The translations under genes were made by a program, and so were the position numbers. The notes under the pieces were generated by a model that saw nothing but the letters and a program-made list of their open reading frames with translations, did no database searches and was not told the DNA's origin. A stretch of DNA of 64,000 nucleotides. It comes from Blasia pusilla (taxonomy: Eukaryota). Of this stretch, positions 18,100 to 47,995 are shown in pieces (position 1 is the first letter of the stretch; each line of letters starts with the position of its first letter). The stretch spans positions 38,688,001-38,752,000 of the forward strand of contig CM114271.1 of assembly GCA_050084515.1 (NCBI GenBank), read 5' to 3'.

Positions 18100-18400
18100 A
18101 ATACTGCTCCTCCAACTAGTACATCATACGACTCGGGTGACGTGACCATTGCAGGTACTGCCAACTGGGAGCTATCAATTGCATGATCTGGTCTCAACTA
18201 TACATAAAACTTCTCCCGTGTCATGTATTGAGTCCTATCATTGGCTCCTCCAAGTGATGTTTGAATCTGGAATGGGCAAGGCTCAAAGCTGTGACCTCCG
18301 AATACCCAAACCAATACATGTCGCCTTTCCGAACATCAAAGGTTGGGCACCAGGGTCTAACAAGACTCTATCTGGTCTATACACCTATCATGTAGGACTC
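18100..18400 (-). pseudogene. aspartic protease (copy 1)
   Basis: My translation of 18325-18370 gives RVLLDPGAQPLMFGK. Copy 2 has LVDSGAQPLMLG at the equivalent position. Confidence 0.75.
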
Positions 18401-23801: not shown

Positions 23802-24442
23802 TGTCGTGCGCATACACATCGCTACACAACATACATCGCTGTCACCGAACACACACACAAACACGCATGATCCCATGCTAACTCATGGCATCCAAACAAC
23901 GAGACAAGAAGAACCAAAATATCTCCAATAAAGTAAGATCCAATCTCTCTCTCCACCATCTCACACCATAGCTCTCAAAGGTGTGCACTATCTCTCATGT
24001 CAAACCAAACCCACTCTCCTAATGAGAGGTTTGGGTTACACTCACAAGGCAAGGTACCATAGCTCCGCCGCCTCATGCCAAGAGGTTCAACAAAGAGAGA
24101 ATGAGCTCTCAAGCTCTCTCTCCTTGAGGTATACCCCTCTCCTCTCCCAAGCTCTCTCCATGGTAACCTATTCTCCCAAGTCATCTCCTTGGCTCTTGAC
24201 CTGATGTAGGAGGTCAAGGGCCACTTACCAAAAATAGTAAGTCAATCATATACTCAAAATGGTACTTATCTAAAATAGTAAATTCCTCAATATGGCTCCA
24301 AATGAGCCGAAACGAAGGGGAAACCTGTTATCTCAGGTTTCAAGGGCCTCGATGAGGTCACCTCGACCTCATCGGGCGTGTCCTCCACTACTCATGAAGG
24401 CGCTTTATTAGATCCCACCGATCTATCCTAAAAGACGTGACA
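23802..24442 (-). mobile_element. solo terminal repeat of the DNMT-gypsy copy-2 family
   Basis: 641 bp, near-identical to 32810-33450, with TG...CA ends and an exact 4-bp TSD AAGG (23798-23801 and 24443-24446). It splits the Helitron codons GLPHVHVL|IVLG. Confidence 0.95.
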
Positions 24443-27400
24443 AAGGACATGCACATGCGGTAATCCTCTTTTTTGGAATTCCACCACATGGATGCATCCT
24501 ACAACTCGGCCTAATATCTGCTTCTTGATGATAAGTCGTAACAACTGCTTCTTTTTCTTCGCAAAAACCCGCACGACCAAATCTGGTCGGTCTGCAGTTG
24601 ATTGGCCAGGTAATAGGGCTGATGTAATCTTCTCCTACTTTGGATTGCATGTCATGGTTAAGAAGTAGTTAGGCTTCCCAAAATGTCGTACAATTGTCAT
24701 TGCATCATGATATAATTGATGCATATGACGTGGCCCTCCAGTAAAAGAAGAAGGTAATATAATGCGTTTCCCAAGCCTTCGGCTATCCGCATCTTGTCGA
24801 TGCATGGCATCCTTTACCCCTTGACATAATTCAGCCCTAAACTCCTTCTGATTTAAGCGTATCCATGATAATCATTGCATTTCCACAGTGGCATAGAGGT
24901 CAGCGATATATTCTTGAGTAAGTTGACGAAGCCGCAATAAGCGATTGTCATCTTCTCCTCCAACCCGCGTTTGAAGTCGAAAACATGCAAATTGCAAGGC
25001 CATAATACATTTTGTTCTTCTTTCCTCAACAATATCACCATAAACTATGTCCTCATCCATGCAATCATCTGAAGGTTCAGGATGTCCCTCCTCTCCATGA
25101 ATAATATGGCCCAATCATCACGATTCTCTACAACCTTCAATTCGCCCAAAGGGTATTCCAAGACGCCAACCTGCTTCACCATAGATAAATAACAAAACAA
25201 AGTGTAAGGGAATATATGCTTTGTTGAGGTCGGATATACGTTTGACTCCTCCTCCATGTAGTCGTATATTTATATCACGATGCTCAACGTGTTCACTTCC
25301 ATCACTCGGCAAAATAGCAGCAACTTCAGAAGCAATTGGTAAGTTATAGCGCTTTGCATCAAGACCTCTCTTACTTGCCTTGAGAATAATCCACATATTA
25401 AGATCACTTGCTGCATATGGCATATGATGAAAGATCTTCACATATGGATTGCATTCATGTAACATGTCTTGGAGACCTTTCAAAATATCCATATTAAGAT
25501 TAGAAGATGTAGACATAACTCTAACACGATTTTCCAATTCATTTGTAGTATCATGGATGTATAGTTGAGCAAATTGGGGATGTCCCCCTATATTAGGATG
25601 TAAAGGTCCAATGGAATGATAAATCCTGCCTTGGACCCTAAAGTGTCCAGTATCACCAATTTTTTCGTTTACATGTACCCCAGTAGATGCAAGTTGAAGT
25701 GCCGAATTATAAGCTCGAGCATGTATAAGAAAATGAACGCTTCTAGGACCAACACCCGAAATCAAGGATTTCAGAAATGGAGGAGATGATCTCAAGAGAG
25801 GTAAGTATATTCTTCCATGGCCACAACACATGCCATATGGTGAGTCACCAAATTTAGTACCTTTGACCACTTCACATTTCCAATACAAACATATCTCTGT
25901 CATAGAACCTAATGTATGATGACCGCTGATATGATTCAAACTCCTTTGTAATCGTAACTTATGAATATCACTTTCTTGAAAATTTGGCCTCCTTGCAAGA
26001 TTGAGTAATGTATTTAATCTTAAAACTCTATATCAAGGGTAGACGACGCACAAATTATAGAAGTATTTGGTATAGTGGCACGTTGTGGAGATAACAAAAC
26101 TTCATTAGGAGACATGGCATCTACTCTTGACCTTGATTCATCCCCAAGTTGGGCAAAAGTCGACGAATTGCTGGAAACTTCATCTTGAACAGGAATAAGA
26201 AGAGTGGTCGACAAATTGTTGATAAATCCATCTTGAACTCGAATAGGAAGAGCGGCTGAAGAATTTTTGACAACTTCATCTTGAATTGGAATAGGAGGAG
26301 TGGTAGGTAACTCAACTTGTGGTGGCCCAATCGTGGATGTATTCTCGATAACTTCATGAAATGCACTTTCAACTAACTCGAGTCTTGGCGATATATAAAT
26401 ATAGTCCGTTGATTGTTCGCTCACTTCTTGATTTTCTTCTACTATTATTCCATCCTTATTGGAAGGCTTGAGAAAATATGTCAAAATATGGATAAGAATA
26501 AATAAAAATCAAATATGGAGTAAATCAAGTAGTTATGAAGTGAATCAAATATAAAAAGTTAGATATAGGTACCTATTCAATGGAATATGTGCAATACTCT
26601 CAGGTTGAACTTGACCATTAAGCCCTTTCCTTCTTTTTCTATACTCTCCATAGTAATTCCTCTTTTTTTCTCTGAGAGCTTCCATTCTATCAGCTCGAAT
26701 AGCACGCTTTTGTTTTTGGGCTTCACCACGTAGAACTTTCCGAAAGTCACGTATATTGACAGGATTCAATGGGATTGGAAGTTTGGAACAACACATGAAT
26801 GTTAAAAGATTACGAAATCAAATGAAAAGTCAATATTTTGTGGGGTGGGAAATTGGACATGCTAAATGAGTGTCGATGTAGTAAACTTACGTTGGAGATG
26901 TTTTAGGTCAGAGTTCATCTTCAAGATGTGTTTGTTGTGCTAAGATTTCCTTGCGACAGACACGCTTTTTTTTTTTGTGCATTCGCACGCATCAATTTTC
27001 GGAAGCCACGCAAATCCGTAGGATTCGATGGAAGAGGAAGTCTATGCAACAATTGGGTTTATTGCATGAGAAAAATATATTGTCGAGAAAATGGTATGTA
27101 AGGCATCATGATTGAAATGGAAATAAGGTGCTTACTTCCTTACCCTAAGCAAAGGTTCTTACATCGGGGAGGTATTCTTCGATACTTCAATATGTCTTCC
27201 CGAACTTTGTTGTGAAATTGGCATATTTGTAATAATACCAAGTGGTCGTCTCTCCCTGTTTAGTGACAATCCGCCAACACTCACCATCTACATGACACAT
27301 AATGGAAGTATTGAGAATTGAAATAAAATGACCAAAAGAATAAATAATAAAAAGAAAAAAAAAGAAAAGAGAAGAAAAGAAAATAGGAGAGAAGAGAAGG

Positions 27401-29060: not shown

Positions 29061-30230
29061 GTTTGCCAGTATAGAATTTTGGCTTAGCAGCTCGGCTCTT
29101 AGGTATTGTCGATTGTCGTGATCATTTTGGAAGCGCCCAGAGCTTCTTTGAAGCTCTTTTCTCTCCGAGATTTACCTGTGCTATTACACATGTACACGTG
29201 GGACAGGTAGGGGCAAAATGAGTGGAGTTAGTACTTGAGTTGAGTACTGAAAGAGGGGCAGGTAGAGACATTCACATTTTCTCAAAACTCTCCAAGTCGC
29301 TTTCAATTCAAAGTAAGCAGTACATGACTGTCTGATCTACTCTACTCCTGATCGGCATACTTACCCTCTCCTACATCCCAAATTCAGATATGGATATGAA
29401 TATTCACTACAACTTCTTTCCCCTTCTGCCCTCTATGTGGTGATTTCTTCGTGCATTGTGGATCATCCCTACGTGTGGTAGGCACACTGGGAGTTACCCG
29501 GGACCTTCCCTTTGATGGTGAGCTTTTCTGATTTCGGTTAGTGCGCGGGGTCATTTTCCGCTTCTTAGCAGAGGCTCCCTCCTCGGTATGTTCCCTTTCT
29601 ATGTTGTGCCTCCTTATGCGATACGGAGGAGTTCCTTCCTCCTCTACAGCGTTTATTCCCTCTCCTCCAATTGGCTTCAGATCGTACCCTTTGTTTGAAT
29701 CCGCAAGGTGGACTGCAGCGAGCATGGAGTCCTTTATTGCATACTCAAAGCCGGGAGCATGCACGGGGGTGAGTGGCTCTCCCCAAGTAGGACTATCTCG
29801 ATGCAACTTGTTCCATTTGCTCAAGCGCATACAGTCCCCTTGAGATATTGGAGACCATTTTGTACTCTCCAATGCTTGGAGATCCGGTGACTTTACACCG
29901 TAATGTTTTTTCGAGCTCATTACCTTGGACACACTCTTTCCTTTCCCTTGTGTTGACATTTTCGTTCCATCTCTAGGTAGTTTCCGTTCTGCACCTTTGC
30001 TGTTTCGGATGTTGCAGATGTCGGTAGATGGTTAGAATGTGAGGAGCTCTGGAGGTGCTGGAGCAAACGTCGAATGTGGAGCAAGCCTCTCGAAAAGCCG
30101 TTAAAGTTGTTGCAGATCTCGAGTAGGGTCAGGGACGTCAAAGAACGGGGAGTTGATCTTGAGATCACATCAAGGGCCGCTTAATCGGGGCAGACTGAGC
30201 TTGAATCAAACGCCTCTCTTCGGGAGTACT

Positions 30231-30631: not shown

Positions 30632-30946
30632 TCAGCAGTCGTTGTGAGAAAAATGGGGAGTGTGTAATTAGTAAGAGGGAATAAATAAGGGTGAAGTTTG
30701 AATTCACAACCCTCGCAGTCACAACTTCTCGACAAATGAGAAGCCAATCTCATCGGACGACGCTGGTTTGAAGGATCCAAACCGTCAAGGACAAAAGGAC
30801 AAGAATTTGAAACAAAAGTTGCGGCCTAAAATGAAACCCTAAGTCCGTCGCACGTGCTAGGTCGGCTTCAGACGCACGAAAATTCCATGTTCGTAAAAAA
30901 AACTGTTACACGAGGCTATGAACAAAACCCTAAAACAGACTGCTTG

Positions 30947-31978
30947 TGTCGTGCGCCTACTCTCCTTGAACGTTAATCTCGTTTGTTGCGGAAGCGTGCG
31001 TTCAGTAGGTCACGCTCTCAACGCTGATCTGCATCCAAACACGCACTTCGGTTAGTCGGGTCTTGGATCAATCAGCGGGATTACTTTCCGAGTTCTCGTC
31101 TCGGACTCTCTTCAAGCTCAACCTTCCTAGTTTCGCGGTTTCCAACACGGGCAAGTCTCGAAAGACTTGGGGACAGACTTTTCAGTCGGTTCGGGAACTG
31201 AAACGGCGTTTCGCGCCTAGCGGTTCCAACTGTCCGATGAACATCCAATGAGTTCCTCACCAAGACTCGCACGAAGTGAATCTTGGGTTGGAATCCAAGT
31301 GTGGCATACAAAGTCCACTCCCTTGGATCAGGTTTGGGTTTCGGGTTTCCACGCCAAACTCCCGTTCCATCCCGTGCCTCTGAAACGCCGTTTGGCGCCC
31401 AAAGTGGGGTTTTGTTTCCTGAGACATCTCAGAGAAGGTACTCCCCTTACTAGTACTTCTGGGGATCTCCGGGGGCCCCCTACATTTAGGGAAAGACACC
31501 CGGGCCTCTCCAATTGGCCCTCAACCCGATTGCTCTCTCAATCGTTTTCAGCCAATATCTCAGCCTGTACTTATGTATTTGCTGAGATCTTTGGTGCGTT
31601 GGAAGCGTCTCAAGATCAGCTTTCCAACGCGCTCTTATTTGTCCCAAACGCATCTTGGAGCTCAACGTTATGGTCCTAAACACAGTCAGATTCTCCCAAA
31701 CGCTAGTCGTGTTCCAAACTGGTTCTCACCTCTTTGGCAACTAACCTCCCAAGACTCAACTCATCTCAAGTCTCGGCTCGCGTTTGGTCTAGGTTTCCTG
31801 GTCGCAACCACTAACGCATGAAATGCACAACTCTGTTCCGCGTTTCGTCTCTTAGACTTTTCCAAGAGACTCTTCCAAACGCCTCTCCAAAGCGCAAACC
31901 TCGCGGCGTGAGTTCCTTTGAGTTCTGATGTTTCGCTTGGCGCGTATTTGGTGTTGTTTGGTTATGAGGTTCACGACA
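30947..31978 (-). repeat. 3' LTR of the chromovirus
   Basis: TGTCG...CGACA, about 1.03 kb, adjacent to PPT AAGGAGGGGTGAG on the minus strand, matches 46367-47389. Confidence 0.93.
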
Positions 31979-32644
31979 CTCACCCCTCCTTAGAAGGTTG
32001 ATGTCCTCATCAACGCAAACCTTATTGAGGTTAAGTTCTGGGAAGCCGACCCCTTAACACAAAATTGCGTTCTGGTAGCTAGCCCGCAATTCCTCTTTTT
32101 GGCTTAAGTCTTAGGTTGTCGCTTGCAGCACTTAGACTTATTAGCTTCTGCTTTCCGATGAGCCTAGAGTAGTTCTGCTGAACTAATCTAACTATCAAAA
32201 TAAGCTCACTAAGTCTGCCACCTAACACTTCACTCACTATTTGTAAACAACCGCCTGTCTACCTAGCCAACTCGTACTACTTTTGGGTCACCTATACTCC
32301 ACCTAGGCGCGTCACTAGGTTCAGTCATGAAACATGAATGAGATCACCACAAACCCCAAGACAGACTCATCTGCCCCGCCGTTAGGGCGAGCCCAAATGC
32401 TAGTACTTCAACACTTGGTCCTGATCTAGATGCCTTATTTGAATACAAGCTCTCACCTCAAATACTCATTGTTTGGTCTCCTTGACTTACATCCTAAGCA
32501 TATGAAGAACTACTCAATGCCTTGCAAAACCAAACTCAAAATTACAATACAAGCATCGAACCTCCAAATCCATGTCTTCTTTATTGCAACAACTAAACCT
32601 TTCTAGTTACAACGGGTTATCGGCCCAAGCTTTCCGGTCACAAG

Positions 32645-32809
32645 TTATGTCCATTGCTTCACCATGTACTGACGCACGTGCCTTTCTTGCATCCATCTGA
32701 AGTCACGCAATGCTTCTTGCGCATCTTCTAGATCCGCCTCCGCAATCCAAGTCGCCTCTTTCACATGATAGCCTTTCCACTTGACCAAGTACTCGTACTT
32801 GGTGGCCCT
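32645..32809 (-). pseudogene. chromodomain of the chromovirus integrase (C-terminal half)
   Basis: ATKYEYLVKWKGYHVKEATWIAEADLEDAQEALRDF. It joins ETILRSTRR (42325-42355) once the nested element is removed. Confidence 0.9.
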
Positions 32810-33760
32810 TGTCGTGCGCATACACATCGCTACACAACATACATCGCTGTCACCGAACACACACACAAACACGCATGATCCCATGCTAACTCATGGCATC
32901 CAAACAACGAGACAAGAAGAACCAAAATATCTCCAATAAAGTAAGATCCAATCTCTCTCTCCACCATCTCACACCATAGCTCTCAAAGGTGTGCACTCTC
33001 TCTCATGTCAAACCAAACCCACTCTCCTAATGAGAGGTTTGGGTTACACTCACAAGGCAAGGTACCATAGCTCCGCCGCCTCATGCCAAGAGGTTCAACA
33101 AAGAGAGAATGAGCTCTCAAGCTCTCTCTCCTTGAGGTATACCCCTCTCCTCTCCCAAGCTCTCTCCATGGTAACCTATTCTCCCAAGTCACCTCCTTGG
33201 CTCTTGACCTGATGTAGGAGGTCAAGGGCCACTTACCAAAAATAGTAAGTCGATCATATACTCAAAATGGTACTTATCTAAAATAGTAAGTTCCTCAATA
33301 TGGCTCCAAATGAGCCGAAACGAAGGGGAAACCTGCTATCTCAGGTTTCCAAGGGCCTCAGCAGGTCACCCTCGACCTACTGGGCATGTCCTCCACTACT
33401 CATGAAGGCGCTCTATTAGATCCCACCGATCTATCCTAAAAGACGTGACAGTTGTCGTGCGCATACACATCGCTACACAACATACATCGCTGTCACCGAA
33501 CACACACACAAACACGCATGATCCCATGCTAACTCATGGCATCCAAACAACGAGACAAGAAGAACCAAAATATCTCCAATCGCCCCCCTAGCTGGTGGTT
33601 AGGTCCCTCTAACTCCAGATAGCCATCTATCCCTACCTACCATGACATACATCTCTCGGACGCTAAGAGCAAGAAGGCCGGGTGCTCATGTGGCCCCATC
33701 GTTAGTCGCCTCCTTGTCATCCATGTCATAGACACAAGTCGGAATGTAGAACTACCTTCT

Positions 33761-35147
33761 CTATGTACATCTGGGACACATCCATCGTCCCTGAGGAACC
33801 CTAGTGAGAGGTGGCGTCAAACATGCCATATGCCATCCTCTCGAACACCCATCACAGACTAGCATCGTGGCCGCACCACGGGCAGAACCACACAACATAC
33901 AACGCAAGCCTGCAGGAACTACTACTAAGCTCGGATCTACTGTACCATCAATGTTAGGAATGTGACATGGCGCACAATTACGCACATGGTCCTTCCATAC
34001 CATACCATCGCGTCCCTCCAGCAAGAGAACACCCGATGGCAAAATGTCACGCACTCTCAGGATAGTGCGCCCTGCAGTCACATCCAACGTCGTCGGTGCC
34101 GTCTGCTGCAAATAGACATAATCTCTTTGATGAAACCTCCGGATAGTTGGTCGATAACCACCACCTCGAATAGTCGCATACCTCAACGTATCCCGATGCT
34201 GTGCAATCGCCAAGTTCTTAACGCCATGGGCATCACTCTCGAAATAACTCACCCTCTCGAGAACATGCTCGCACCTATACATCTGGGTCATCAAGGTTCA
34301 GCACCTCACCAGCATCTCGACGAATGGTCGCAGGTAAATCTGGCTCTCGGCCATAAAGTAGCAAGTACGGTGAAAAAGACGCTAAGGATGCCTGCATGCT
34401 GAATTTGTATCCCATCGCCAACCATGGCAACTAGAGGTCCCAATCTCCTAGGTGACCTCTCTGCAAGCCATACTTGCGTAAACCCCTCTTCACCATCTGC
34501 ACAACTCTCTCCGCTAATCCATCCGCCTTAGGATGATCTCGCGAAGTCGTGCGGTGGTCGATGAGCGCCTGATCACACAAGGCTTGGAACTCACCGCGAA
34601 ACTCGGTACCCTGGTTTGTCAACACCTCAGCTGGTGCGCCATAATGACTTAGCACTCTGTCAAGGAAGGCATAAGCTACTCCCTCACTTGCTTTGTCAGG
34701 CAAAGCAACCAACTCGATCCACTTCGAGAAGTGCTCGACCATCACCATCACCAACACATAACGACTATGACGCTCCGTCAAGGGCAAAGGTCCTGCAAAA
34801 TCCAAACTCCATCTATACCCTAAGCCCATGATCGGTAATGGATGCAACTGTGGAGTCGGAGCATTGAACGATGCTCGGACCCGATCACACACCATGCACC
34901 TGGCAACAAACTGCTGAACGTCAGTCCGCATGCCTCGCCACCAATAATGAATCTGGAGCAAGCTATACGTCCGCTTCACCCCAAAGTGACCCAACTCCTC
35001 GTGGGCATGCTGCACTAGTCGTGCTCTCTCCAAAGGATGCGGCACTACGCGTACTCTGCCATCCTCCCAAACCCTCAAAACATGTGTCCCCTCCCAACGG
35101 AACCGTCGGCCCATTTGTAGGATCCGATCCCGCTCTCTAGCATCCAT
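33761..35147 (-). pseudogene. gypsy integrase with intact C4HC3 PHD finger (copy 2)
   Basis: HAHEELGHFG...CMVC, WSLDFAGP, TNQGTEF, DGLAERVVQ, then CMLCGSARGAATMLVCDGCSRGWHMACLTPPLTRVPQGRWMCPRCT. Confidence 0.93.
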
Positions 35148-35402
35148 GGTGCTCGCAAGGCGCCGAGACGAAGGTACTCTAAGACTACTCCATCATCATG
35201 AATATCTCGGCCACTTGTTGTGTCCTCACTGGCCTCGGGATCCAAAGACTCTCCACTAGACCTCGCCATCGAAGTCTCCACACTCTGGCTCTCCATAGCC
35301 AACATGCCTAAATAGGCTGACGCGTGCCATCCTGGCACCGACTCCTCATCACTCTCTCCATGCCATTGAGCTCCAGTCGCATCTCGCTGACTCGGGCATG
35401 GG

Positions 35403-36835
35403 TTACGACTCAACCCATCTGCATCCTGGTTGAGCGTTCAGTCTATGTACCACACGAAAATCATACTCCTGCAACAACAGAGCCCATCTCGCAAGCTTCC
35501 CTGTAAGCTTGTCGAACTCCATCAACCACTTCAGTGGTTGATGATCAATGATGATGGTAAAGGGGTTGCCGAATAAGTAACACCTAAAATGCGCGAGACC
35601 ACACCGCATGACCAAGCACTCACCCTCATACGAGCCGCCTTCGCCTCTGCGGCGTTGTTCGAGCGGCTAGCGTAAGCCACCACAAACTCTCTACCCTCAT
35701 CATCATGCTGGGTGAGCACCGCTCCAAGCTCCAACATGCTCCAATCTGTGTGCAACTGGAAAGGACGCCCCCTCATCGGTCTCCTCAAGATGGGTGTGGA
35801 CGTCAACCTGTCCTTGAGCAACTGAAATGCTCGCTCCTGCTCATCCCCCCAGTGCCACTCGTGATCCACCTTGGTGAGCAAGGTCAGCGGCTTTGCAATC
35901 GAACCGAATCCCTTGATGTATCGCCGATAGAAGTTCGCCAATCCCATGAATGCGCAAACACGGCTCACATCTGTAGGGCGTGGAATGCGTGAGATAGCCT
36001 CTACCTTCGTCTGCTGAACACCAAGGCCCCCTGGTTATATCGTATGACCCAAGTACTCAATCTGGTCGTAGAAGAACTTGCACTTGCCTAGATGTAGCTT
36101 CAGCCCATGTAATTGCAATCGTCGAAACACCTCCTCTAGATGTTGCTCGTGCTCCTCAAACGTGGCGCTAAAGACTATGATGTCATCAATATAACACCTA
36201 GCAAAATCCAGACCAGCCAAGATCCTATCCATGACCCTCTGAAACTCAGCCGGGGCGTTCTTTAACCCAAATGGTAAGAACCGCCACTGGTACAAACAAT
36301 CCTTCCCGTGAGGATCGATGCCCCAAAATGCCGTCTTCTGCCTGTCCTCCAATCTGATAGGCAGCTGATGATATCAAGCTCGCAAATCCAATGAACTGAA
36401 GACCTTTGCGTGACCAATCACATCAAAGATCTCCTCAGGGGTGGGCATGGCATACCTATCGGACTTCGTTTGCCGATTGATAGGTCGGTAATCCCCACAC
36501 ATCCGCCTATCCGTCCAATTGCCATGCACATCCTTCTTGGCGGGCATGACAGTGGCAAATGCATACTCTCCATGCGATATCTCCACTAGTCCAGCTCCGA
36601 CCAAGTCTTGGCTCTTACTCTGAATCAGAGCCCTCTCCATATCACTATACCTGTAGGGTCGTCGGAAGATCGGCATATCACTCGACAACTCAATGCGGAT
36701 CCCCGGTCCCTTCAGCGTACCCAAATCCTCCATGCTAAACGCAAAGCAGCTCCTATAACTCCTGAGGAACTGATGTATTCGGCGCCGCTCTCCTCCTGTC
36801 AACTTAGGGCCCATATCTGGCTCCCAAGTCTCCAT
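35403..36835 (-). pseudogene. reverse transcriptase and RNase H (copy 2), frameshifted
   Basis: RMCGDYRPIN, LPFGLKNAPAEFQR, CYIDDIIVFS, FMGLANFYRRYI, LHTDWS, IDHQPLKWL. Confidence 0.93.
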
Positions 36836-37179
36836 CGTGACTACGGTAGGACTCTCCGGCGCGGGTATCGGTGGTTGCTATGGTGCAACCCCGTCTCGAA
36901 CAACAACACTTGGCCGCTCTCCTGCAGCCAACTGCAAACTCTGATCTCCTCCACGTGCAATGCCCAAAACCACGCTCGATGTTGTGGCTATCATCTCCTT
37001 GCATACCTTCAAAACATCCCAAGAAGTCCAAGGGTGTCTCTCCCGATCTCCCCTGGTGCGTAGATCTCCTCGGGTCTCGCCCCCAGCCGTTGCCTCCACC
37101 GTCTCGGTAGGCATGGGGCTCACCAACGCAACATTGTGATCTGTCGCGATCTCATACGACGCCGCTCACCACTCCCAAG

Positions 37180-38140
37180 GCGAGGATCCATGTCAAGAAG
37201 TTCAGGTCCATCGCTGACCCAAGACATGGCGTCGCGTGATGCCTCGACATCGATGGTACGCTGCCGTCACTCTGTGGGAAATCCCATCGCCGCTCTCTCT
37301 CTCGGCGTTGGGCTCCACCAACCGCTGAACCTGGTCATCCCAAACCAAGCAGGATCGGCCTCCTTGTATGCACGGAAGCGGAAAACTCACAAACGTGGGC
37401 AAGGCGCCGGGCTTGCCTACCCTGTTGACCCCGATCGGCGGTGGTCGATCATCGTGCCTCACCGCCTCTGTGATCGGCGACTGGATCGAATGGAATCCAC
37501 TAACAAAGGGAGGGGCGCTCCACTCTCGCATACGCCCTCCATAACACCGCATGGGGCACCAAGTTGGTCCACCATAGAGGCGGGCGATGGGCTCTAGAAC
37601 CTACACTTGCCGCATCCAAGAACACTATTGGGCCGATCTAGGCACGCACCTGATGAGCACTCATCACGACCCGTGACCAAGAGTCTCCTAAGATCGGCAC
37701 ATTCTCCAGAATGTAGGCTGGAGAACGAGACTGGTGCTCCTGCAACTGCCGTAAGACCCTCAACATCTCCCAAAACAACCTGGACCGAGTGTCAGCCAAC
37801 CCGCTGCCTCGTCCAACACTCGATTGGCCCTGACATGGCCAACCAGCAATGACCAAATCAATGGTCCCTACCCGCTCTAAGTCCGGCGCCCCCAACAACA
37901 AAATATCCCTCGGTAGGGAATTCTGGTACCCTGTACTGCGGACGCAAACAATAAGTCGGGAAAACGTAGGCGTAATTGCGCCACATGTTGTAGTGAGACG
38001 CGCCTCGCAACATCATCACTCTCCACATACAAATCTTCGGCCAGACTCGCACTCTCGCTTGCAAAACAAAGACTAACCCGATTCTAATCACTCCAAAGAG
38101 ATCTAACACTCGAATACCCTCCTCCGGGTACACCACACAA
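37180..38140 (-). pseudogene. C5-cytosine DNA methyltransferase domain inside pol (copy 2)
   Basis: PEEGIRVLDLFG (motif I), DLVIAGWPCQGQSSVG (IV), GLADTRSRLFWEMLRVL (V), AYILENVP (VI), LVEPNAERE (IX), RRHVLGQ (X). Confidence 0.9.
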
Positions 38141-38599
38141 TGGGTGTAGTATCCAAGGGTGTCATCGTAGCACTCCCGCTACCTCGGGTTCCTCAGACTG
38201 TCACGCCTGGTGCAAACGCCTCGCTCCACGCTGATGCCGTGCACGTGTGCATCCGCTTAATCGTTGAAGCTCCTCGCCGAGCCCCACACCGGCACCTCTC
38301 CTCCACGGAATGATGCGGCTACAATAACACTCCTCTCCATAGAAATGTCGAACAGGAGTATCTCTGCATGGACATGTCCCTCAATCAAATCACTAGGCCA
38401 AGTGATGGGCACGCTAAATCTTTGCTAAGGTCGCCATCTCTCCTCGCCGTTCGATCATCGCACTGTGAATTGAACGGGTAATGAGCTAAGGCGCCCATCA
38501 CCTGGATCGCCATCCTGGTCGTAGGGACGCCGACTCCTCCCGTAATCCAGGGAAAACCCCATCGGGTATAACATCGCTCCACCAACCAAGATGTCGAGG

Positions 38600-40930
38600 A
38601 CTCAAAGATCGATCACTATCGCCTTGGCGCGCACCACGGACTCATCGCCAGGATGTCCGGCGAATACCCACCACAACCTCCTGTCGGGTGATATACTGTG
38701 TGGTACTCGCTCCACCCAAGGATGTCTATATCCGAAATGGACAACACTCCACATCGGCTCTCGTCAAGCCCAATCCTCGAATGACGCTTTCCCCAACATC
38801 AAGGGTTGCGCTCCCGAATCAACAAGGCGCTGCGGACTAAAAGATCTACCTCCGGGACTCACCAAGCTGGAAGACCTCTCCTCGGTTATCCAAAGCAACA
38901 CAACACCAGGAGAAGCCATGCACGCTCTATCGCAGGTCTAGCGGGCATCTCCGCCATCCTAGCGACCCCATGACCGCCATGAATCGGCGTGGATCGCCCG
39001 TGCATCCGCTCCAAGGGCAGGTCCATCACCTCCTCTGCAATCACCTCAACGTGATGCGGGAACTCCAACTCGCGCTCACATAGTGAAGCGGCCAGTAAAA
39101 AGCCTCGGCGGGCGTACCCCAACGTCATAACATCGGAAGCGAGAAAATAAAGGAGTGCGGTACACAACGGTGGCGCCCCAACAACGTGTTTCGACACATA
39201 GAGTCGCCGCTTTTCGCTTCTCCCATCGCCCTCCGTGCTTGCACACAACAACATTACCAACTCTCCGGGAACTTTGATGAGGACCCATCGATGGGGTCCT
39301 CATCGCTTCGGACAACGTGAAAGATTGAGGAAGCCTCGTTGTGGATCCAACTCTGTCGCTTCCAGCGTCACAAGCTGCGGCGGCCTCCATCTAGGCAACC
39401 CCGACATCCATCCGGGATCCTCCGGATCTCGGCTGCTCCATATGATGTCGATGCCACGGATCCGGCATCGGGTAACCTCAATGCCATAGCGGCAATCTGC
39501 TCCTGTAGCTTTTGTATCTAAGCAGCCATCCCAGCCTCACGTCCGGCATCTCCCTCGGCGCGTCTAGGTGGTGGTACTCTACCTCCTCCACGGGCAGCTC
39601 CACCACCCTGTCGGGCAACTCCAGCTCCTCGTCCCCCAACGGGACCACCTGGAGCACGATCTCTAGGCCCACTCGGACCGGCTACTCGCTCTGGTGCCCT
39701 CTCTAGCCCTCGGTCCAGACGTAACTCAGGATGTAAACTAAAACACCTGGCGCGTGTATGACCATACCTCTGACAATAGTCACACTGATAACCTCCTGGT
39801 GCAGCACCATCTCCTCCTCCATGCTATGGCACACGTCCATGACCCTGACGAGTGCAATCGCGCTGATGATGGGCTCCACCACATGACCAACAAGTAATAG
39901 TAGGCGGCTGCTGCTGAGCCGCATATGAAGGCGCAGGTCTCGTGGCACGGCCTCTCGGTATCCTCCCTGAGCTCGTGGTGCCCACGGTCAACCTATCTCG
40001 AGTCACGTTCTTTGCCGCAGGTGGTGCGAGACAATCGTGGATTGCTCGCCAGAACCCATGGTGGCTACGCTCTCCTCCGCCATGTTGCGCTCAATGTTCT
40101 CGGCGGTCCTAAAACATCTCTCAACGAGGGGAGGTGTTCATAAGAAGCACCCCTCCCGCACCCGTGTCCGCAGGTCGGTCGAAAGATCGCACACCATGAC
40201 CGGATAGCTGAGCCTCTATCACCCCCGAGTGGCGTTGATCAACCGGCGCAGCGAGTGTAAGCCTCACGCAAACTCTCACCCGGCGCCTGTGGAAGTCGTG
40301 GATGCTCTGCAACTTCTCCGTCCGTACCCCTAGTAGCTCGCCCTCAACTCAAGCAAAGAACTCAACCACAGGGTTGAACCGGGGACGAACCCGACTAGAC
40401 GGTGCAAACCTAAACCCTAAACCCGACTAGACGGTGCAATTGCTCCCGTGCGAGTGATCCCCCCTAAAACGTCACTAGTGGAAGAGGGAGTAGCCTCTCC
40501 TGACTCCTCCTCCTCATCTGGGAACGGCTCCGTCCATGACACATAATGTGGGTCATAGTAGAGCCTCCACGCCTCGATCTCACATGCATATCTCGAGAGA
40601 ACTCATGGTAATCGTCCATGGCGCCCCCTCTAAATCTTTGGAACATACCGTTCCATCTTTGTAAACGGGTTGAACTCTCTAGAGTGGCCCCCGGGAGTCG
40701 CACCAACTCCTAAACTCGCTTTAAAATCGTGCAACTCAATCGTGCCCCTCGCACTGAAAACCTCACGCGGTCCTCTACCCCGGTCGTCCATCTCGTACGC
40801 CCAACTGGTAGGACCACTCACAATGTGTGGCGATGTGCTCACAAACTCCTCTACACCCTCCCCCTTGTCTGACAATGACACAGAAGGAGGTCGAGGTGGT
40901 CCCTCACGTGGAGACCCTCGAAACCTCACG
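38600..40930 (-). pseudogene. gag and protease of copy 2, heavily frameshifted
   Basis: GTIELHDF, AMDDYHEF and CWSCGGAHHQRDC match copy 1 gag. LVDSGAQPLMLG lies near 38790-38830. Confidence 0.75.
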
Positions 40931-42371
40931 CCACTCCGCGTAAAACCTCTAGAGCTACTCTCGGGTTCACCACCTCGCCTCTCAAAGTCCCGAACAGACT
41001 CCGTGATGACCCTCGTGCCCCTCTCACCCGATCACTCTGAACCTCGTGAGGAATCCCTCAATCACTCATCCCAAACATGCGGCACTCGATCTACACTCTC
41101 TCTCCCCAAGACGTGTAACGTGCGGAAACACGCGGCGTGGTGCGGCAAATCGACCAGGCTATCATCTCATCGACAACCTACCCTCAACTCTGGACATCCC
41201 ACACAGGTCTATGTCCCCTAAACCACATACATAAATGATGCTCTCAGCATCCACACACCCAATATCCCCAAATAAATCCCAGAATCCCTCACACGTGCAG
41301 GGTAAAGGACCAGAATGGGTAACCTGAACACATGTCAATGTCGCTCCCCAGCAACTAAAAATCTCGACCCCAACTCGATCGTGGAGACAACTCCTCCAAT
41401 CAGCAAGTCATACTCCTCCCGTCATCGATCTTTGCTCAAAACTCCTCGATAGACAAATGCGGTCCCGGCCGAACGGTGCGGCGTTAAAGGCGACGAACGG
41501 CTACGAACGGCGCGGCCCTCGATGGTGGGATGCGGCACTCGGCGCATACCCTCCTCAATCAATAATAATCCCACACTCTGCTCCACAATGACGGTGCGGC
41601 TCGCGTCGAGATGGTGCGGTGCGCCACCCCAGCAGCGCACGGCGCGGCAATCGGCGGCGCGTTGCGGCTACGGGCGCCACGGCACGATACTCGATCGCCG
41701 CTCAGCGGCTACCAATCACAACATAGCAGCATGAAATCAAAACTCAAACACCATAACCGAGGTCATCGCCTTCATGGTTGATGAAGAAAGCTGCGATGAC
41801 GGTGGCGGCCAAAACAAAGTACGTGGTGGCGACGCAAGTCAAGGAATCAACGAACGTCATTGAAGACCCTCCACTCCGTAATGGCGGCAATGGCCACTCT
41901 CCTAATGAGAGGCTTGGGTTACACTCACAAGGCAAGGTACCATAGCTCCGCCGCCTCATGCCAAGAGGTTCAACAAAGAGAGAATGAGCTCTCAAGCTCT
42001 CTCTCCTTGAGGTATACCCCTCTCCTCTCCCAAGCTCTCTCCATGGTAACCTATTCTCCCAAGTCACCTCCTTGGCTCTTGACCTGATGTAGGAGGTCAA
42101 GGGCCACTTACAAAAATAGTAAGTCGATCATATACTCAAAATGGTACTTATCTAAAATAGTAAGTTCCTCAATATGGCTCCAAATGAGCCGAAACGAAGG
42201 GGAAACTTGCTATCTCAGGTTTCCAAGGGCCTCAGCAGGTCACCCTCGACCTACTGGGTGTGTCCTCCACTACTCATGAAGGCGCTCTATTAGATCCCAC
42301 CGATCTATCCTAAAAGACGTGACACCCTACGTGTGGAACGCAGAATGGTCTCAACCTCGAACTCTGGTTCC

Positions 42372-45300
42372 TCATTTCTGATGACCGGTTGTGGTCTCAA
42401 CATCATCATCCTTTCGCTCCGGACGCATATTGTCTTGAAGATACTTCTTCAATAATGACACATGGAAAGTCGGGTGAATCTTGAACTCGTTTGGCAGCTC
42501 CAACGTGTATACATCCTCAAACGGCTTTGCCTTGATCACATACGGTCCAGCATACTTGGCTGACAATTTTGCGGACAATTCCTTCGGAAGAGTGAGATTC
42601 TTAACACTCAACCACACTTTTTCCCCAACTTGGAAACTCACCTGGCGCCGACTTTTGTTAGCATGCTTTATGTACCTTAGTTGAGCTTTGGTGAGACTTT
42701 CTCTCGCTCGCTCTTGTTGTTCCTGCATTTCCACTAACAAACATTCCGCCGTTGCTTGAGGAGTGTGTGTCGATGTATTGCCCTTCGAAAGAGCTAAGTC
42801 AAGAGGCCCTTCTGGTTCTCTTTGATACGCCTGAAGAAACGGAGATTATCCGGTTGCAGAATGCGTAGTCGAGTTGTAACAATACTCAGCCATACTTAAC
42901 CACTTGGCCCAATCTCTTTGGTCCGCACTCACGTAATTCCGTAAGTATTGGTTTACGACCGAGTTTACTTTTTCCGTTTGCCCATCCGTTTGAGGATGGA
43001 AGGCCGTACTAAAGCTGAGTTTGGTCCGGAACCTCCTGAATAGATGTTTCCAAAAAGCACTGGTAAACTTCGGATCCCGATCGGACACAATGCTCCTAGG
43101 CAATCCGTGCACACGCCACCAACCATCCAGGAATAGTCGGGAAGTCGTGTAGGCCGTCGCAGACTCTCTCGTCGGCACAAACCTCCCCAACTTACTAAAC
43201 CGATCAACTATCACAAGTATAGCGTTGTATCCCTCAGATTCTGGAAGACTCGTAATGAAATCCATGCTAATGCTTTGCAAGGGTCCCTCCGGGATTGGCA
43301 AAGGATGAAGTAAACCTTGTTTCTTCGCATAAGACACGCGGTTCACTTGGCAGGTCACGCATGTTTTCACATATTGAACAACATCTTCCTTCATGTTGGG
43401 CCAGAAGAACCTCTTAGACAAAACAGCAAGAGTGGATTTCTCCCCTTTGTGTCCCGCCAAAGGTCCATCATGACATGCCACAAACACCTTGGTCCGTAGC
43501 TTGCCTTGGCCTACATAGATCCTGCTCTGCTTAAACCTTAGCAAGCCGTGTCTCAAACTCAGATTGGCCACCTTCTCGCCCCGCTTTAACTTCCCAAGGT
43601 ACTCCTGCTTATGCATCCTTCATGTATCCTTCACGAATCCTTCTTTCCAAGTCTGTTTCATTAGGGAACATTGCTCTCAACACTTGTGTCGTCGATGGCA
43701 TGTGTTCATCCCTGCGACTTAACGCATCTGGAATGACATTGTCTTTCCCCGGCTTGTGGATTAGCTCCACATTCATCAACGCCAAGGTATCATGCCACCG
43801 AAGTTGTTTTGGCGTCACGCGATCCTGGGTCTCAAAATACTTGAGCGATATGTTATGTGTGAATACTCGAGTCCTGTGAAGTCCCAAATAGTGACCCCAC
43901 TTCCTCAAGCAATGAACCACCGCAAACAACTCTTTCTCATGAGTAGGCCATCTCCTTTCGGTGTCGCTAAGGTTCTTGCTTTCGTATGCTACAGGCCTCT
44001 CTTTTTGCACCAACATTCCTGCAATCGCGAAATCACTAGCATCCGTGTGCACCTCGAACGGTTGTTCAAACTCCGGAAGTTTCAGAACTAGTTCCTGCGA
44101 GAGGATCTCTTTGACTGGATTGAACGCTTTATCCACTTCCTCGGTCCATGTAGTATTGGCAAAATTTGGGGTCCAATCCGTGAGAGGTTTCACTATGCCC
44201 GAAAAGTTCTTCACGTATGTCCGGTAAAACTGGATAGCTCCGATGAACCTTCTCATCCCCTTCACCGTGGAAGGCGGTTCCCATTCGGCAATTGCGCTCA
44301 CCTTCTCCATGTCTGGACTCACTCCATCCGCACTAACCACATGCCCCAAGAACTTGATCTTCGTCAAACCGAACTCACTCTTATCCGCATTCGCATACAG
44401 CTTGTTCGCCCTAAGTTTCTCAAACACCGTCTTCAAATGTCGAGCGTGCTCCTCTAGTGTTTTCGAATAGATGAGTATGTCATCTATATAGATGATCACA
44501 AACTCATCCGTCTCCTTGTGAAAGATGGAGTTCATCAAAGTGGTAAACGTCGGAGGCGCATTACAAAGACCGAAAGGCATTACTACAAACTCTAACGAAC
44601 CGTATCTCGTTCTACACTCAGTCTTCTCTACATCCGCTTCGGCAATCCGAATCTGATAATATCCTGATTTCAGGTCAATCCGGCTGAAATACTTGGCACC
44701 CGACAATCGATCAAAGAGGTCATCCATCCTCGGTAGAGGATAGTTATTCCTTACCGTCACTTTATTCAGCGCCCGATAATCAACACAGAGTCTCAACTTC
44801 CCATCCTTCTTCTTTACAAAGAGGACGGGCGCCCCATAAGGTGACTTGCTTGTTCGGATGTAACCCCTCTCCAGAAGTTCACCCAACTGTTTCTTCAACT
44901 CAGCAAGTTCCTCTTGATTCAACCTATATGGTGCCTTTGAAGGTGGTTGAGATCCTGATATCACCTCAATCTTATGATCAACCGCCCTATGTGGTGGCAA
45001 CTCAGTCGGAAGCTCCTTAGTCAACACATCTCCAAATTCTTTCACAACTTTTTTGAGTGTTTCAGGGATCCCCCTTGAAGCTGAGTTCTGATCTCTGCAT
45101 CTCGCGCTTGCATCATCCTCTACTCGTCTCATCAAGCAAAGGAATCCTTCCTCTAACTCGGCCAAACTCGTCCTCGTGATGGCGTTCACCAACTCCGTCT
45201 TTCTAGGCACCTCACGAACCAATCTGACGTCCGTCCGTTTGCCGTTAACCAAGACGCTCAACCTCAAAGGTCTCCGCCTCAGTTCCACCTCATACGCATA

Positions 45301-45735
45301 CAAGAACGTGTTCCCCAAGACTCCGTCGATTCCGTCCATGTCGCAAACTGTAAAATTCTCCTTCAACTCAAATACTCCGCAACTCACAACTAGCCCTAAA
45401 ACCAGATCTGATGTCTGGTGGGACTTGCCTCCCGCGAATCCTACCCTAATGGGTTCATCCGCCTTGGTGGTCGGCAATCCCAACGTTTTTACAATTCTCG
45501 GACTCAAGAATGAGTGCGAAGCACCTGTATCAACGAGCAACATCACATCGCGATTAGCGATCTTGGATCCTAGGTAAACCAGATTGGGCATTCTCTTGGT
45601 GACTTGTAGAGATGTATCTAGATCTCCCTCCGATAAATGCTTAGCGGCAAACGCAATCATACTCAGTTTACTAACCTTGGGCCTAACACATTCCTTAGCC
45701 ATATGTCCGGGTTCGCCACAATTGTAGCAAATCGC
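42372..45735 (-). pseudogene. chromovirus pol (zinc knuckle, PR, RT, RNase H, integrase)
   Basis: CYNCGEPGHMAKEC, LLVDTGASHSF, RLCVDYRALN, MPFGLCNAP, YIDDILIYS, VHTDASDFA, HDGPLAGH...CVTC, ISMDFITSLP, SDRDPKF, HPQTDGQTE, YAGPY, IHPTFHVSLLK. Confidence 0.95.
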
Positions 45736-46352
45736 TTTGGCATTCGTTGACTTCGTAAACGGCGGCCCCTTGGCTTCGCGTTGAGTTCCACTCGTTTCGC
45801 CGCTGGGGCGAGAGACCCTCCATGGTCGCGTTCACCCCCATTCCAAACCCTCTTGGATGTCCCTTTGTTCTTCTGTAACTTAGAAAAACTTTTTGTCTCA
45901 AAGGGTTTTGGGTGTTGGACTTCATCGTCCCCAATCCGCTTGGCTAGTCTCAAGAGATCCGCGCATGTCTCTGGGATGTGAGGCATACAAAAGAGAGCCT
46001 TCTCGGCACTTGGTTTGAGCCCACTTCTCGGATCGTTTAAGTTTGGACCCGCAGGTCCCGCGGAAAGATTTTCGGTTGGAACATCCTCATGTCGGGGACT
46101 CGGCACTTCGGGAGTCGCAAATTCCACCTCCGGCTCTCGGTCCGTCATTGATTCGTCTCTTGGCTTCTTTGCTTTGACTCGCGGTTTCCTCGGTTCTTTG
46201 CCCTTGGTCGCCATTTTCGAGTTGTCGCCTTTTCTCAGATCTCCTCCTCGCCTCTTGCGTTCCTCCTCGGCGTCGCGGTCTTCCGGCTACCTTGAGTTCT
46301 CCCCAAACGTCCAGATCTTCAACGACCCCAAGTTCACGCTCATCAAGGAATT

Positions 46353-46364
46353 GCTCTGATACCA
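46353..46364 (-). promoter_or_regulatory. primer-binding site (tRNA-Met) of the chromovirus
   Basis: TGGTATCAGAGC lies two bases after the LTR end at 46367. Confidence 0.92.
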
Positions 46365-46366
46365 CG

Positions 46367-47995
46367 TGTCGTGGGCCTACTCTCCTTGAACGTTAATCTT
46401 GTTTGTTGCGGAAGCGTGCGTTCAGTAGGTCACGCTCTCAACGCTGATCTGCATCCAAACACGCACGCCGGTTAGTCGGGTCTTGGATCAATCAGCGGGA
46501 TTACTTTCCGAGTTCTCGTCTCGGACTCTCTCTTCAAGCTCAACCTTCCTAGTTTCGCGGTTTCCAACACGGGCAAGTCTCGAAAGACTTGGGACAGCTT
46601 TTCTGGTCGGTTCAGGAACCTGAAACGGCGTTTCGCGCCTAGCGGTTCCAACTGTCCGATGAACATCCAATGAGTTCCTCACCCAGACTCGCACGAAGTG
46701 AATCTCGGGTTGGAATCCAAGTGTGGCGTATAAAGTCCACTCCCTTGGATCAGGTTTGGGTTTGGGTTTCGCGCCAAACTCCCGTTTCATCCGTGCCCTC
46801 AAACGCCGTTTGCGCCCCAAAGTGGGGTTTCGTTTCCGAGACATCTCAGAGAAGGTACTCCCCTTACTAGTACTTCTGGGGATCTCCGGGGCCCCTACAT
46901 TTAGGGAAAGACACCGGGCCCCTCATTGGCCCTCAACCCGATTGCTCTCTGAATCGTTTTCGGCCAATATCTCAGCCTGTACTTATGTGTTTGCTGAGAT
47001 CTTTCGTGCGTTGGAAGCGTCTCAAGATCAGCTTTCCAACGCGCCCTTACTTGTCCCGAACGCATCTCGGAACTCAACGTTATGGTCCTAAACACAGTCA
47101 GATTCTCCCAAACGCTAGCCGTGTTCCAAACTGGTTCTCACCTCTTTGGCAACCAACCTCCAAGACTCAACTCATCTCAAGTCTCGGCTCGCGTTTGGTC
47201 TAGGTTTCCTGGTCGCGACCACTAATGCATGAAACGCACAACTCTATTCCGCGTTTCGTCTCTTAGACTTTTCCAAGAGACTCTTCCAAACGCCTCTCCA
47301 AAGCTCAAACCTCGCGGCGTGAGTTCCTTTGAGTTCTGATGTTTCGCTTGGCGCGTATTTGGTGTTGTTTGGTTACGAGGGTCGCGACACCGTGCCTCTG
47401 AAACGCCGTTTGGCGCCCAAAGTGGGGTTTCGTTTCCCGAGACATCTCAGAGAAGGTACTCCCCTTACTAGTGCTTCTGGGGATCTCCGGGGGCCCCCTA
47501 CATTTAGGGAAAGACACCCGGGCCTCTCCAATTGGCCCTCAACCCGATTGCTCTCTCAATCGTTTTCGGCCAATATCTCAGCCTGTACTTATGTATTTGC
47601 TGAGATCTTTGGTGCGTTGGAAGCGTCTCAAGATCAGCTTTCCAACGCGCTCTTATTTGTCCCGAACGCATCTCGAAGCTCAACGTTATGGTCCTAAACA
47701 CAGTCAGATTCTCCCAAACGCTAGTCGTGTTCCAAACTGGTTCTCACCTCTTTGGCAACTAACCTCCCAAGACTCAACTCATATCAAGTCTCGGCTCGCG
47801 TTTGGTCTAGGTTTCCTGGTCGCAACCACTAACGCATGAAATGCACAACTCTGTTCCGCGTTTCATCTCTTAGACTTTTCCAAGAGACTCTTCCAAACGC
47901 CTCTCCAAAGCGCAAACCTCGCGGCGTGAGTTCCTTTGAGTTCTGATTTTCGTTTGGCGCGTATTTGGAGTTGTTTGGTTATGAGAGTCGCGACA
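46367..47995 (-). repeat. 5' LTR of the chromovirus (46367-47389) abutting a second, partial LTR (47390-47995)
   Basis: 47390-47995 corresponds to about 31372-31978 and ends in CGACA followed by the TSD. Confidence 0.9.

Follow-up and report, generated by a model that had tools for sequence, protein, structure and literature searches.

The window analysed here, a 64,000-nucleotide stretch of the Blasia pusilla assembly GCA_050084515.1 (contig CM114271.1, positions 38,688,001 to 38,752,000 of the forward strand), contains two decayed Ty3/gypsy retrotransposons of the published Gypsy-DNMT3 kind, built from gag, a DNMT3-like domain, reverse transcriptase (RT), RNase H (RH), integrase and a PHD finger. 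The finger lies at the very end of the polyprotein. It is best viewed as an accessory domain at the C-terminus of the integrase, in a lineage of Ty3/gypsy elements that encode a DNMT3-like enzyme as well, and its likeliest role, in a reading that we rate as somewhat better than even, is the tethering of the integrase to chromatin. The features on which the argument turns are these (positions are those of the window):

32810-42324, minus strand: copy 2 of the element, with a 4-bp target duplication CCCT (32806-32809 / 42325-42328); self-BLAST and inspection of the ends
12554-22358, minus strand: copy 1 of the element, older and decayed; self-BLAST and repeats
33767-33901, minus strand: PHD finger of copy 2, intact C4HC3 (Cys1 to Cys8); Pfam, PDB search, AlphaFold2 (AF2) and Foldseek
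13315-13449, minus strand: PHD finger of copy 1, Cys3 changed to Tyr (stop codon 13309-13311); translation
33902-34225, minus strand: integrase C-terminal region of copy 2, with a helix, an SH3-like beta barrel, an N-C-A-P-C-H-L-P motif and a linker to the PHD finger; tblastn, AF2 and column conservation

In copy 2, an open frame of 178 amino acids on the minus strand (33761-34297; protein P0001) ends in the finger, its C-terminal 46 residues having the pattern C-x2-C-x11-C-x2-C-x4-H-x2-C-x14-C-x2-C-T before the stop codon. Cys1 is encoded at 33899-33901 and Cys8 at 33767-33769, with Thr next and the pol stop at 33761-33763; P0001 itself begins out of frame (about its first 24 residues), as tblastn puts a frameshift somewhere in 34226-34277. 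Residues 133-177 match Pfam PF00628 over model positions 1-47 of 47 (E 5.2e-12; 46 bits, cutoff 24). The finger of copy 1 sits in a frame at 13312-13764 with an in-frame stop upstream at 13597-13599, and its Cys3 codon (13402-13404) is TAT where the equivalent in copy 2 is TGT. An earlier interpretation made from the letters alone (the sequence-only reading) had described exactly this pair, an intact C4HC3 finger in copy 2 and a Cys-to-Tyr change in copy 1, and had named the PF00628 profile as a check; the translations and the full-length profile match bear it out.

The predicted structure is that of a PHD finger. The AF2 model of P0001 has a mean predicted local distance difference test score (pLDDT) of 76, with 89-95 in the finger (residues 131-178), and Foldseek superimposes the modelled finger on the PHDs of DPF3b, H3-bound ATXR5, BAZ2A/B, UHRF1 and BHC80 with a root-mean-square deviation (rmsd) of 0.6-1.4 Å over 45-49 columns. 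By both methods the copy 2 finger has the interleaved two-zinc arrangement and small beta sheet of this fold. The top Foldseek matches, the Tudor-PHD pairs of PHF1/MTF2 and of UHRF1, were considered as a possible shared architecture and set aside, since at an rmsd of 13-16 Å we take them to be separate matches to two domains, the barrel and the PHD.

The finger is genuine and not a chance match, because 63 of the 72 longer homologues of P0001 carry PF00628 (a hand count from a word-indexed search in which no motif was selected for) and because the eight zinc ligands are invariant in a 45-sequence alignment (A1; 45/45), although the 45 sequences had been picked for matching the C4HC3 pattern. 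A search of the Protein Atlas gave nothing beyond unnamed PHD clusters from Streptophyta and Chlorophyta. Comparison of the two copies points to purifying selection on the finger: the ratio of nonsynonymous to synonymous substitution (dN/dS) is 0.11 for the 46 codons of the PHD and 0.10 for the 105 codons beside it, figures that are rough because dS is saturated, and the proportion of nonsynonymous sites that differ (pN) lies well below that of synonymous sites (pS) over the same codons.

The finger directly follows the SH3-like C-terminal barrel of the integrase (strands at P0001 residues 60-110, pLDDT 85-95 in the AF2 model), which is where chromoviruses carry their chromodomain. In the 85 family proteins whose PHD follows the integrase, it starts without exception 184-216 residues past the end of the integrase-core match. 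Because this spacing is fixed while the DNMT changes place in the polyprotein, the PHD is tied to the integrase rather than to the DNMT. The end of the barrel bears the N-C-A-P-C-H-L-P motif (P0001 residues 107-114; 33956-33979), in which C111 is present in 45 and H112 in 44 of the 45 aligned sequences. A second zinc site in this motif was considered, and no complete ligand set is evident, C108 being found in only 30/45 and H104 in only 29/45.

The proteins nearest to the window copies come from Marchantia. Among the 72 homologues of P0001 the named sources are Marchantia polymorpha (at most 83% identity), Calypogeia fissa, Sphagnum fallax and Tetrabaena socialis; 63 of them pair PF00628 with integrase domains and several also have PF00145. 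HMMER, run exhaustively with the intact relative P0011 as query, returned 247,176 proteins at E <=0.001, and the PHD was reached by the alignment in 68 of the best 150 representatives at 50% identity. An indexed search with the RT-RH region added Klebsormidium nitens, several Closterium species, Chara, Haematococcus and Tetraselmis. Two of the Klebsormidium proteins, P0315 and P0319, fall in the same RT subclade as the window copy, and because P0319 has a C-terminal PHD and P0315 the DNMT, the published Klebsormidium family very probably has the finger too.

These relationships were resolved with an RT-RH FastTree of 227 rows with at least 400 aligned residues, taken from 274 with a BLAST match among 324 sequences compared (322 stored proteins and two window open reading frame (ORF) translations) and rooted on three angiosperm rows. 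The rows in which a PHD follows the integrase number 85, and every one of them belongs to a single 149-row clade (support 90; an inner 146-row node has support 99), whose names are exclusively from the green lineage and include Marchantia, Calypogeia, Klebsormidium, Closterium, Haematococcus and Tetraselmis. Outside it lie animal rows, angiosperm rows, the window's other Ty3/gypsy element and P0231 from Tarenaya. The PHD is found between RH and integrase in six basal or sister rows. Subclade A (64 rows, support 97), with Klebsormidium (1) and Haematococcus (2) as its named members, has a tail of 100-430 residues after the PHD in 46/48 and the DNMT between RH and integrase (47 rows). In subclade B (74 rows, support 80), with Marchantia, Calypogeia, Klebsormidium, Closterium and window copy 1, the PHD is terminal in 30/30 and the DNMT precedes the RT (13 rows). 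A DNMT-like region was detected in 71/155 rows.

The tails that follow the PHD in P0028, P0029 and P0049 contain faint matches to D12-class N6-adenine methyltransferases (PF02086, E 0.03-0.18), which may link them to the long terminal repeat (LTR) elements with adenine methyltransferases that feature in bioRxiv 10.64898/2026.05.21.726589.

The sequence-only reading had placed the finger 'in place of' the chromodomain. As a statement of position, after the SH3-like barrel, this is correct, but as a statement of replacement it finds no counterpart among the relatives and neighbours that were scanned. No Chromo domain (PF00385) turned up in the window ORFs, in whole-protein Pfam scans of 35 family relatives, in the post-PHD tails of 15 relatives at E up to 1, where only the faint D12 matches appeared, or in any of 26 scanned neighbours that have no PHD. 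The sole chromodomain-bearing protein sampled, P0231, has 40% RT identity and lies outside the PHD clade. Since the 85 rows of this kind sit in one green clade, and no chromodomain was found in the relatives scanned, the arrangement does not look like a recent swap in a chromovirus; the PHD holds the position of the chromodomain, nothing shows that it replaced one, and to judge from the tree it is ancestral to the 149-row clade. Placement relative to chromoviruses rests on this FastTree of 227 rows, which contains no named chromovirus reference lineages (GyDB, REXdb).

PHD fingers that read H3K4me3 (the ING, BPTF and TAF3 type) have an aromatic cage that includes a Trp two residues before the zinc-binding His. 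In the window finger this position is Gly154, as it is in 44/45 aligned sequences and 81/91 family PHDs; the cage Trp is lacking, as the sequence-only reading had pointed out, and the finger does not conform to the K4me3-reading type. The best 60 of 112 PDB matches are to CHD4 PHD1/2, PHF12, KDM5A/B PHD1, KAT6A/B, DPF2/3, KMT2C/D, BHC80, ATXR5, BAZ2A/B, AIRE, UHRF1 and ORC1b, which we take, from the entry titles of several, to be readers of the unmodified H3 N-terminus; the ING, BPTF and TAF3 types were not found among these best 60. The contacts described for KDM5B PHD1 bound to H3K4me0 (PMC4225485) compare with the window finger as follows:

K4 contact: KDM5B D308; window Ala129 (beside Gly130); lost
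T3 contact: KDM5B E321; window Ala142; lost
R2 contact (salt bridge): KDM5B D328; window Asp149 (Asp in 40/45); kept
A1 pocket: KDM5B W351; window Trp172 (42/45), with Pro168 and Gly170; kept
H3 backbone pairing by the strand before Cys3: KDM5B L324-L326; window Met145-Leu146-Val147; kept

The strand before Cys3, the Asp after Cys3 and the P-x-G-x-W loop that mark readers of unmodified H3 are therefore present, and they are conserved. The acidic contacts and the overall charge vary within the family. Mean net charge of the finger is +2.2 in 17 close relatives and -4.1 in 28 distant ones or, by tree clade, +0.3 in subclade B, -4.7 in subclade A and -2.8 in the basal rows; an acid at the K4 position is present in 38/48 of subclade A and 11/13 of the basal fingers and in only 16/30 of subclade B. 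The window PHD is also more basic than that of Klebsormidium. The family at large thus looks like a K4me0-type reader, and the window branch would have kept the A1/R2 core while losing the K4-sensing features.

Binding to the H3 tail was modelled by docking window PHD residues 124-178 with two Zn against H3 residues 2-41 (canonical H3, metagenome locus L001), with no alignment used. The score was 0.44, the best of 3 controls reaching 0.00, which was graded as weak support; runs agreed on at least 87% of contacts and partner pLDDT was at least 53. The mark set for this docking was reached by 51/78 solved complexes and by 2/108 mismatched pairs; among scores of 0.60 or below, it was reached by only 5 of those 78 solved complexes but by all 4 passing mismatches (of 180). 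Because like complexes have already been solved, the pass may reflect memory on the part of the model. The structure prediction with an H3 peptide that the sequence-only reading had suggested therefore leans weakly towards binding, and says nothing of methylation state.

Collectively, these comparisons make H3-tail binding by the window finger plausible. Its specificity for K4me0 is doubtful, and strict H3K4me0 reading would not be expected because the acidic K4 and T3 contacts are missing in the liverwort-type branch. What endures of the proposal that the finger reads unmethylated H3K4 is the likeness in sequence and fold, the A1/R2 contacts and the absent cage Trp, whereas the lost acids and the net charge of +5 tell against it. 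The finger would best be read as an integrase-tethering reader of the H3 tail, with doubtful K4 specificity in the window branch. Under this reading the finger, held behind the SH3-like barrel, would bind the free H3 N-terminus (A1, R2, T3) on nucleosomes, and this binding would bias where the intasome inserts, which is the job done by the chromodomain in chromoviruses. All three insertions in the window (3/3) lie inside other transposons, which counts towards tethering, although they are too few to separate targeting from survival. As both copies carry stop codons and frameshifts, they are dead, and any such function is that of the family and not of these loci.

Several observations weigh against tethering through the H3 tail. 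No acid is available for the K4 amine at the position of KDM5B D308 or BHC80 D489/E488, the residues before Cys1 being A129, G130, L131 and R132, and none is present at the T3 position (A142). The loop between C2 and C3 has 0 acidic and 1 basic residue, and a net charge of +5 is unusual for a binder of a very basic peptide. The docking was graded only as weak support and is blind to methylation state. The Closterium proteins P0102, P0265, P0274, P0284, P0288 and P0317, which belong to the RT subclade of the window copy, stop ~20 residues short of the start of the PHD; either the finger is absent from these elements, and may then be dispensable, or the gene models are incomplete. Finally, the nesting of the three insertions in transposons may be due not to targeting but to the survival of copies in gene-poor DNA.

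The lost acids and the basic charge could instead mean that the liverwort-type finger has left the H3 tail for another ligand, such as nucleic acid (target DNA or cDNA, as with retroviral integrase C-terminal domains), the nucleosome acidic patch or the N-terminus of another host protein. The shift in charge from distant to close relatives, culminating in +5 in the window, and the loss of both the K4 and the T3 acids would fit such a change, and UHRF1-type PHDs accept non-histone N-termini, to go by the titles of PDB entries with PAF15 and Stella. It is nevertheless an unlikely explanation: the core A1/R2 contacts Asp149, Trp172, Pro168 and Gly170 are still conserved, and H3 docking is above its controls, if weakly; the finger is also under purifying selection equal to that on the adjacent domain, though this does not tell ligands apart. 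A coupling of reader and writer, in which the PHD would act with the DNMT3-like enzyme of the element much as ADD does in animal DNMT3, H3K4me0 binding directing or licensing methylation of the new copy or its surroundings, is in our view less probable again. DNMT and PHD do co-occur across the clade, more distant members have acidic fingers of the K4me0 type, the DNMT has DNMT3B/3A/3C as its best solved matches (E ~1e-6), and the order RH-DNMT-integrase-PHD in subclade A would allow DNMT, integrase and PHD to be one mature protein. In the window's own subclade, however, the DNMT lies between protease and RT (P0257), ~1100 residues from the PHD with RT, RH and integrase between them; across the family the DNMT moves in the polyprotein while the distance from PHD to integrase is constant, and the window finger lacks the K4-contacting acid.

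That the finger is a functionless inherited appendage, or serves only, as a zinc-bound structural module, to stabilise the C-terminus of the integrase, would accord with the death of both window copies, the missing zinc ligand of copy 1 and the Closterium proteins that end before the finger. This is the explanation to which we give least credence, since retention of the finger from chlorophytes to bryophytes, a dN/dS of ~0.1, PF00628 in 63 of 72 unselected homologues and zinc ligands invariant in the (motif-selected) 45 sequences all speak against it, and the conservation extends beyond the zinc ligands to surface residues of the H3 groove. Chromatin tethering of the integrase is thus preferred. 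A more speculative extension, which we put forward only tentatively and consider improbable as a whole, is that a kit of reader, integrase and writer (an H3-reading PHD with a DNMT3-like enzyme) predates the split of chlorophytes and streptophytes, and that the liverwort-type branch re-tuned its reader to another chromatin state or ligand through loss of the K4/T3 acids and a change in charge from about -4 to as much as +5. If true, the family would offer a natural series in which the choice of insertion site evolved via a few surface changes on one small domain.

REM1, described by Perez-Alegre in 2005 and cited in PMC8557442 and PMC6673714, is said to be a green-algal retrotransposon with a PHD finger. 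The fingers with which the window finger compares most closely, the readers of unmodified H3 (KDM5B PHD1, BHC80, AIRE PHD1, CHD4 PHD2, DPF3b PHD2, ATXR5, BAZ2A/B and UHRF1), share with it the fold, the strand before Cys3, the R2 Asp, the P-x-G-x-W loop and the Gly before the His; the window finger differs in having no K4 acid (and no T3 acid of the KDM5B type), in being basic and in belonging to the integrase of a transposon, not to a chromatin enzyme. Animal DNMT3 resembles the window family in uniting, within one product, a cysteine-rich reader of the H3 tail and a catalytic domain of the DNMT3 type. There the reader is an ADD (GATA-like plus PHD), whereas the window reader is a single canonical PHD that lies beyond RT, RH and integrase, at the extreme end of the polyprotein; no evidence was obtained for an intramolecular, ADD-like contact between PHD and DNMT in the window family.

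Among mobile elements, chromoviruses carry a chromodomain after the integrase that targets heterochromatin (Gao et al., 2008, as cited in PMC6673714). Both systems have a histone-reader domain fused to the integrase C-terminus after an SH3-like module, with tethering presumed in both, but the window reader is a PHD and has no PF00385 match. In Gypsy-7a_cRei of Chlamydomonas, a figure legend places the PHD between RH and integrase (PMC9940879), the order seen in the six basal rows of the tree; the PHD is again an accessory pol domain of a green-lineage LTR retrotransposon, although in the window clade it follows the integrase. The closest published system is KnitGypsy-Dnmt3, the Gypsy-DNMT3 family of Klebsormidium (de Mendoza et al., 2018, PMC5890265), the source also of the DNMT3 assignment of that family and, in the legend of its Fig. 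4c, of an A-coding-B-A-B repeat layout; a 2026 preprint names 'streptophytes (Gypsy-DNMT3)' (bioRxiv 10.64898/2026.05.21.726589). The window copies share with KnitGypsy-Dnmt3 a Ty3/gypsy pol with a DNMT3-like domain, the DIRS-like A-coding-B-A-B layout, which is present in both, and the RT subclade of P0315 and P0319. They differ in their liverwort-type host, with Marchantia polymorpha providing the closest proteins, and in their more basic PHD. The word 'PHD' is absent from the main text and three supplementary files of PMC5890265, where the finger may still be drawn in Fig. 4c.

Both the family of elements and its DNMT3 have been published before, so that what is gained here is a refinement, not a new kind of system. 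PMC6673714, PMC8557442 and bioRxiv 10.1101/2021.11.30.470311 mention in general terms that PHD fingers are often carried by retrotransposons. A search of the full-text literature, covering text and not figures, found no description of the integrase-terminal PHD of Gypsy-DNMT3 elements, of its clade-wide conservation with the DNMT or of the shift in charge. How mobile elements turn host epigenetics to their own use is illustrated by retrotransposons that encode chromatin readers and DNA methyltransferases, and in this family the reader linked to the integrase is a PHD, not a chromodomain, conserved from green algae to bryophytes beside a DNMT3-like enzyme. Two questions become testable as a result, whether the PHD tethers as chromodomains do and whether the reversal of charge in the liverwort branch alters target choice, and the chromatin maps and genetic tools of Marchantia make such testing practical.

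The remaining features of the two copies and of a related remnant are listed below.

34431-35192, minus strand: integrase H2C2 zinc-binding domain and rve core, copy 2; Pfam PF17921 (E 1.8e-18) and PF00665 (E 5.1e-11)
35369-36856, minus strand: RT and RNase H region, copy 2, frame broken; tblastn to P0022 residues 436-938, 45.5% identity
37482-38012, minus strand: DNMT3-like C5 cytosine methyltransferase fragment, copy 2; Pfam PF00145 (E 2.9e-11) and tblastn
33019-33450, minus strand: repeat A, 3' copy, copy 2; 98.8% identical to 41894-42324
41894-42324, minus strand: repeat A, 5' copy, copy 2; self-BLAST
33452-33580, minus strand: repeat B, internal, copy 2, just 3' of the stop codon that follows the PHD; identical to 32809-32937 at all 129 nt (100%)
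32809-32937, minus strand: repeat B, terminal, copy 2; 100% identical to internal B
14134-14553, minus strand: integrase H2C2 and rve, copy 1; Pfam
14966-17761, minus strand: DNMT3-like domain, RT and RNase H in one frame, copy 1, with three internal stops before the terminal one; Pfam RVT_1 (E 7.5e-32)
19524-20519, minus strand: probable gag, copy 1, weak; Pfam Retrotrans_gag (E 0.0047, under the curated cutoff)
23802-24442, minus strand: solo remnant (A-x-B) left by the copy-2 family within a Helitron Rep-like ORF; target duplication AAGG; 97.7% identical to 32810-33450

The order RT, RNase H and integrase (H2C2 and DDE core), the terminal repeats and the short target duplication are those of Ty3/gypsy elements. 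The intact relative P0257 displays the full order of protease, DNMT, RT, RNase H, integrase and PHD. In copy 2, tblastn with P0022 gives four pieces in two frames, with three frame changes, running from 37916 down to 33767, and Pfam adds an RT_RNaseH_2 match at 35531-36034; in copy 1 the match spans P0022 residues 30-897. PF00145 matches occur in both copies, and as the DNMT and RT of copy 1 read in one frame the methyltransferase lies inside pol. The best PDB matches for the DNMT region of P0022 are DNMT3B/3A/3C (E ~1e-6), ahead of M.HaeIII (4e-5), a ranking of PDB matches and not a DNMT tree. The presence of a DNMT3-like writer in the same polyprotein as the PHD, a further claim of the sequence-only reading, is in this way supported.

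The element ends are TG..CA and the target duplications are of 4 bp (CCCT, AAGG). Despite these ends, the duplications and a DDE integrase, the repeats are split direct repeats of the form A-coding-B-A-x-B and not plain LTRs. On the element strand, copy 2 runs through A (42324-41894), the coding region, B (33580-33452), A (33450-33019), an 81-nt segment x (32938-33018) and B (32937-32809). Copy 1 has the same plan, its A repeats (12662-13027 and 21993-22358) being 94.5% identical and its B repeats (12554-12660 and 13030-13136) 92.5% identical. The solo A-x-B remnant has the form expected from recombination between two A copies.

RNA-seq reads from three runs of the same species label (one study) match copy 2 at 95-99% identity, and in >90% of them the first mate is on the plus strand, which in the usual stranded libraries denotes sense transcripts of the minus-strand element. 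Read depth on copy 2 is ~30 in the PHD bin, 8-18 in most integrase and RT bins and <9 in the DNMT and gag bins. Because most reads differ consistently from copy 2, they show that the family is transcribed and do not identify the locus itself as the source. In a few reads (1, 7 and 2 by run) 33828 is followed directly by 34078, a skip of 249 nt (33829-34077) that takes out the first half of the PHD; as the ends are not intron-like (TA..AG, plus strand), the skip is probably a deletion variant among the transcribed copies and not an intron.

The whole window is rich in transposons. Copy 1 splits a repeat of which an uninterrupted paralogue lies at about 61150-63993, and copy 2 is nested in a second Ty3/gypsy element, between its pol stop (42372) and its 3' LTR (30946-31979). 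This second, unrelated element (42372-47995) encodes zf-CCHC, protease, RT, RNase H, integrase and SH3_Tf2-1 domains, with no PHD, DNMT or chromodomain, and its LTR-like repeats are at 46366-47390 (tandemly extended to 47995) and 30946-31979. At 24443-24871 on the minus strand, Helitron_like_N ORFs (E 1.6e-18 and 8.9e-24) break off precisely where the solo A-x-B remnant is inserted. Two Ty1/copia-type fragments, at 55769-57769 and 1398-2414 (minus strand), have Pol_BBD, gag_pre-integrs, rve, SH3_retrovirus and RVT_2 domains. A weak match to the Aquarius insert domain at 29387-30031 on the minus strand (PF21144, E 3e-4, under cutoff) may mark a fragment of a host gene between the transposons.

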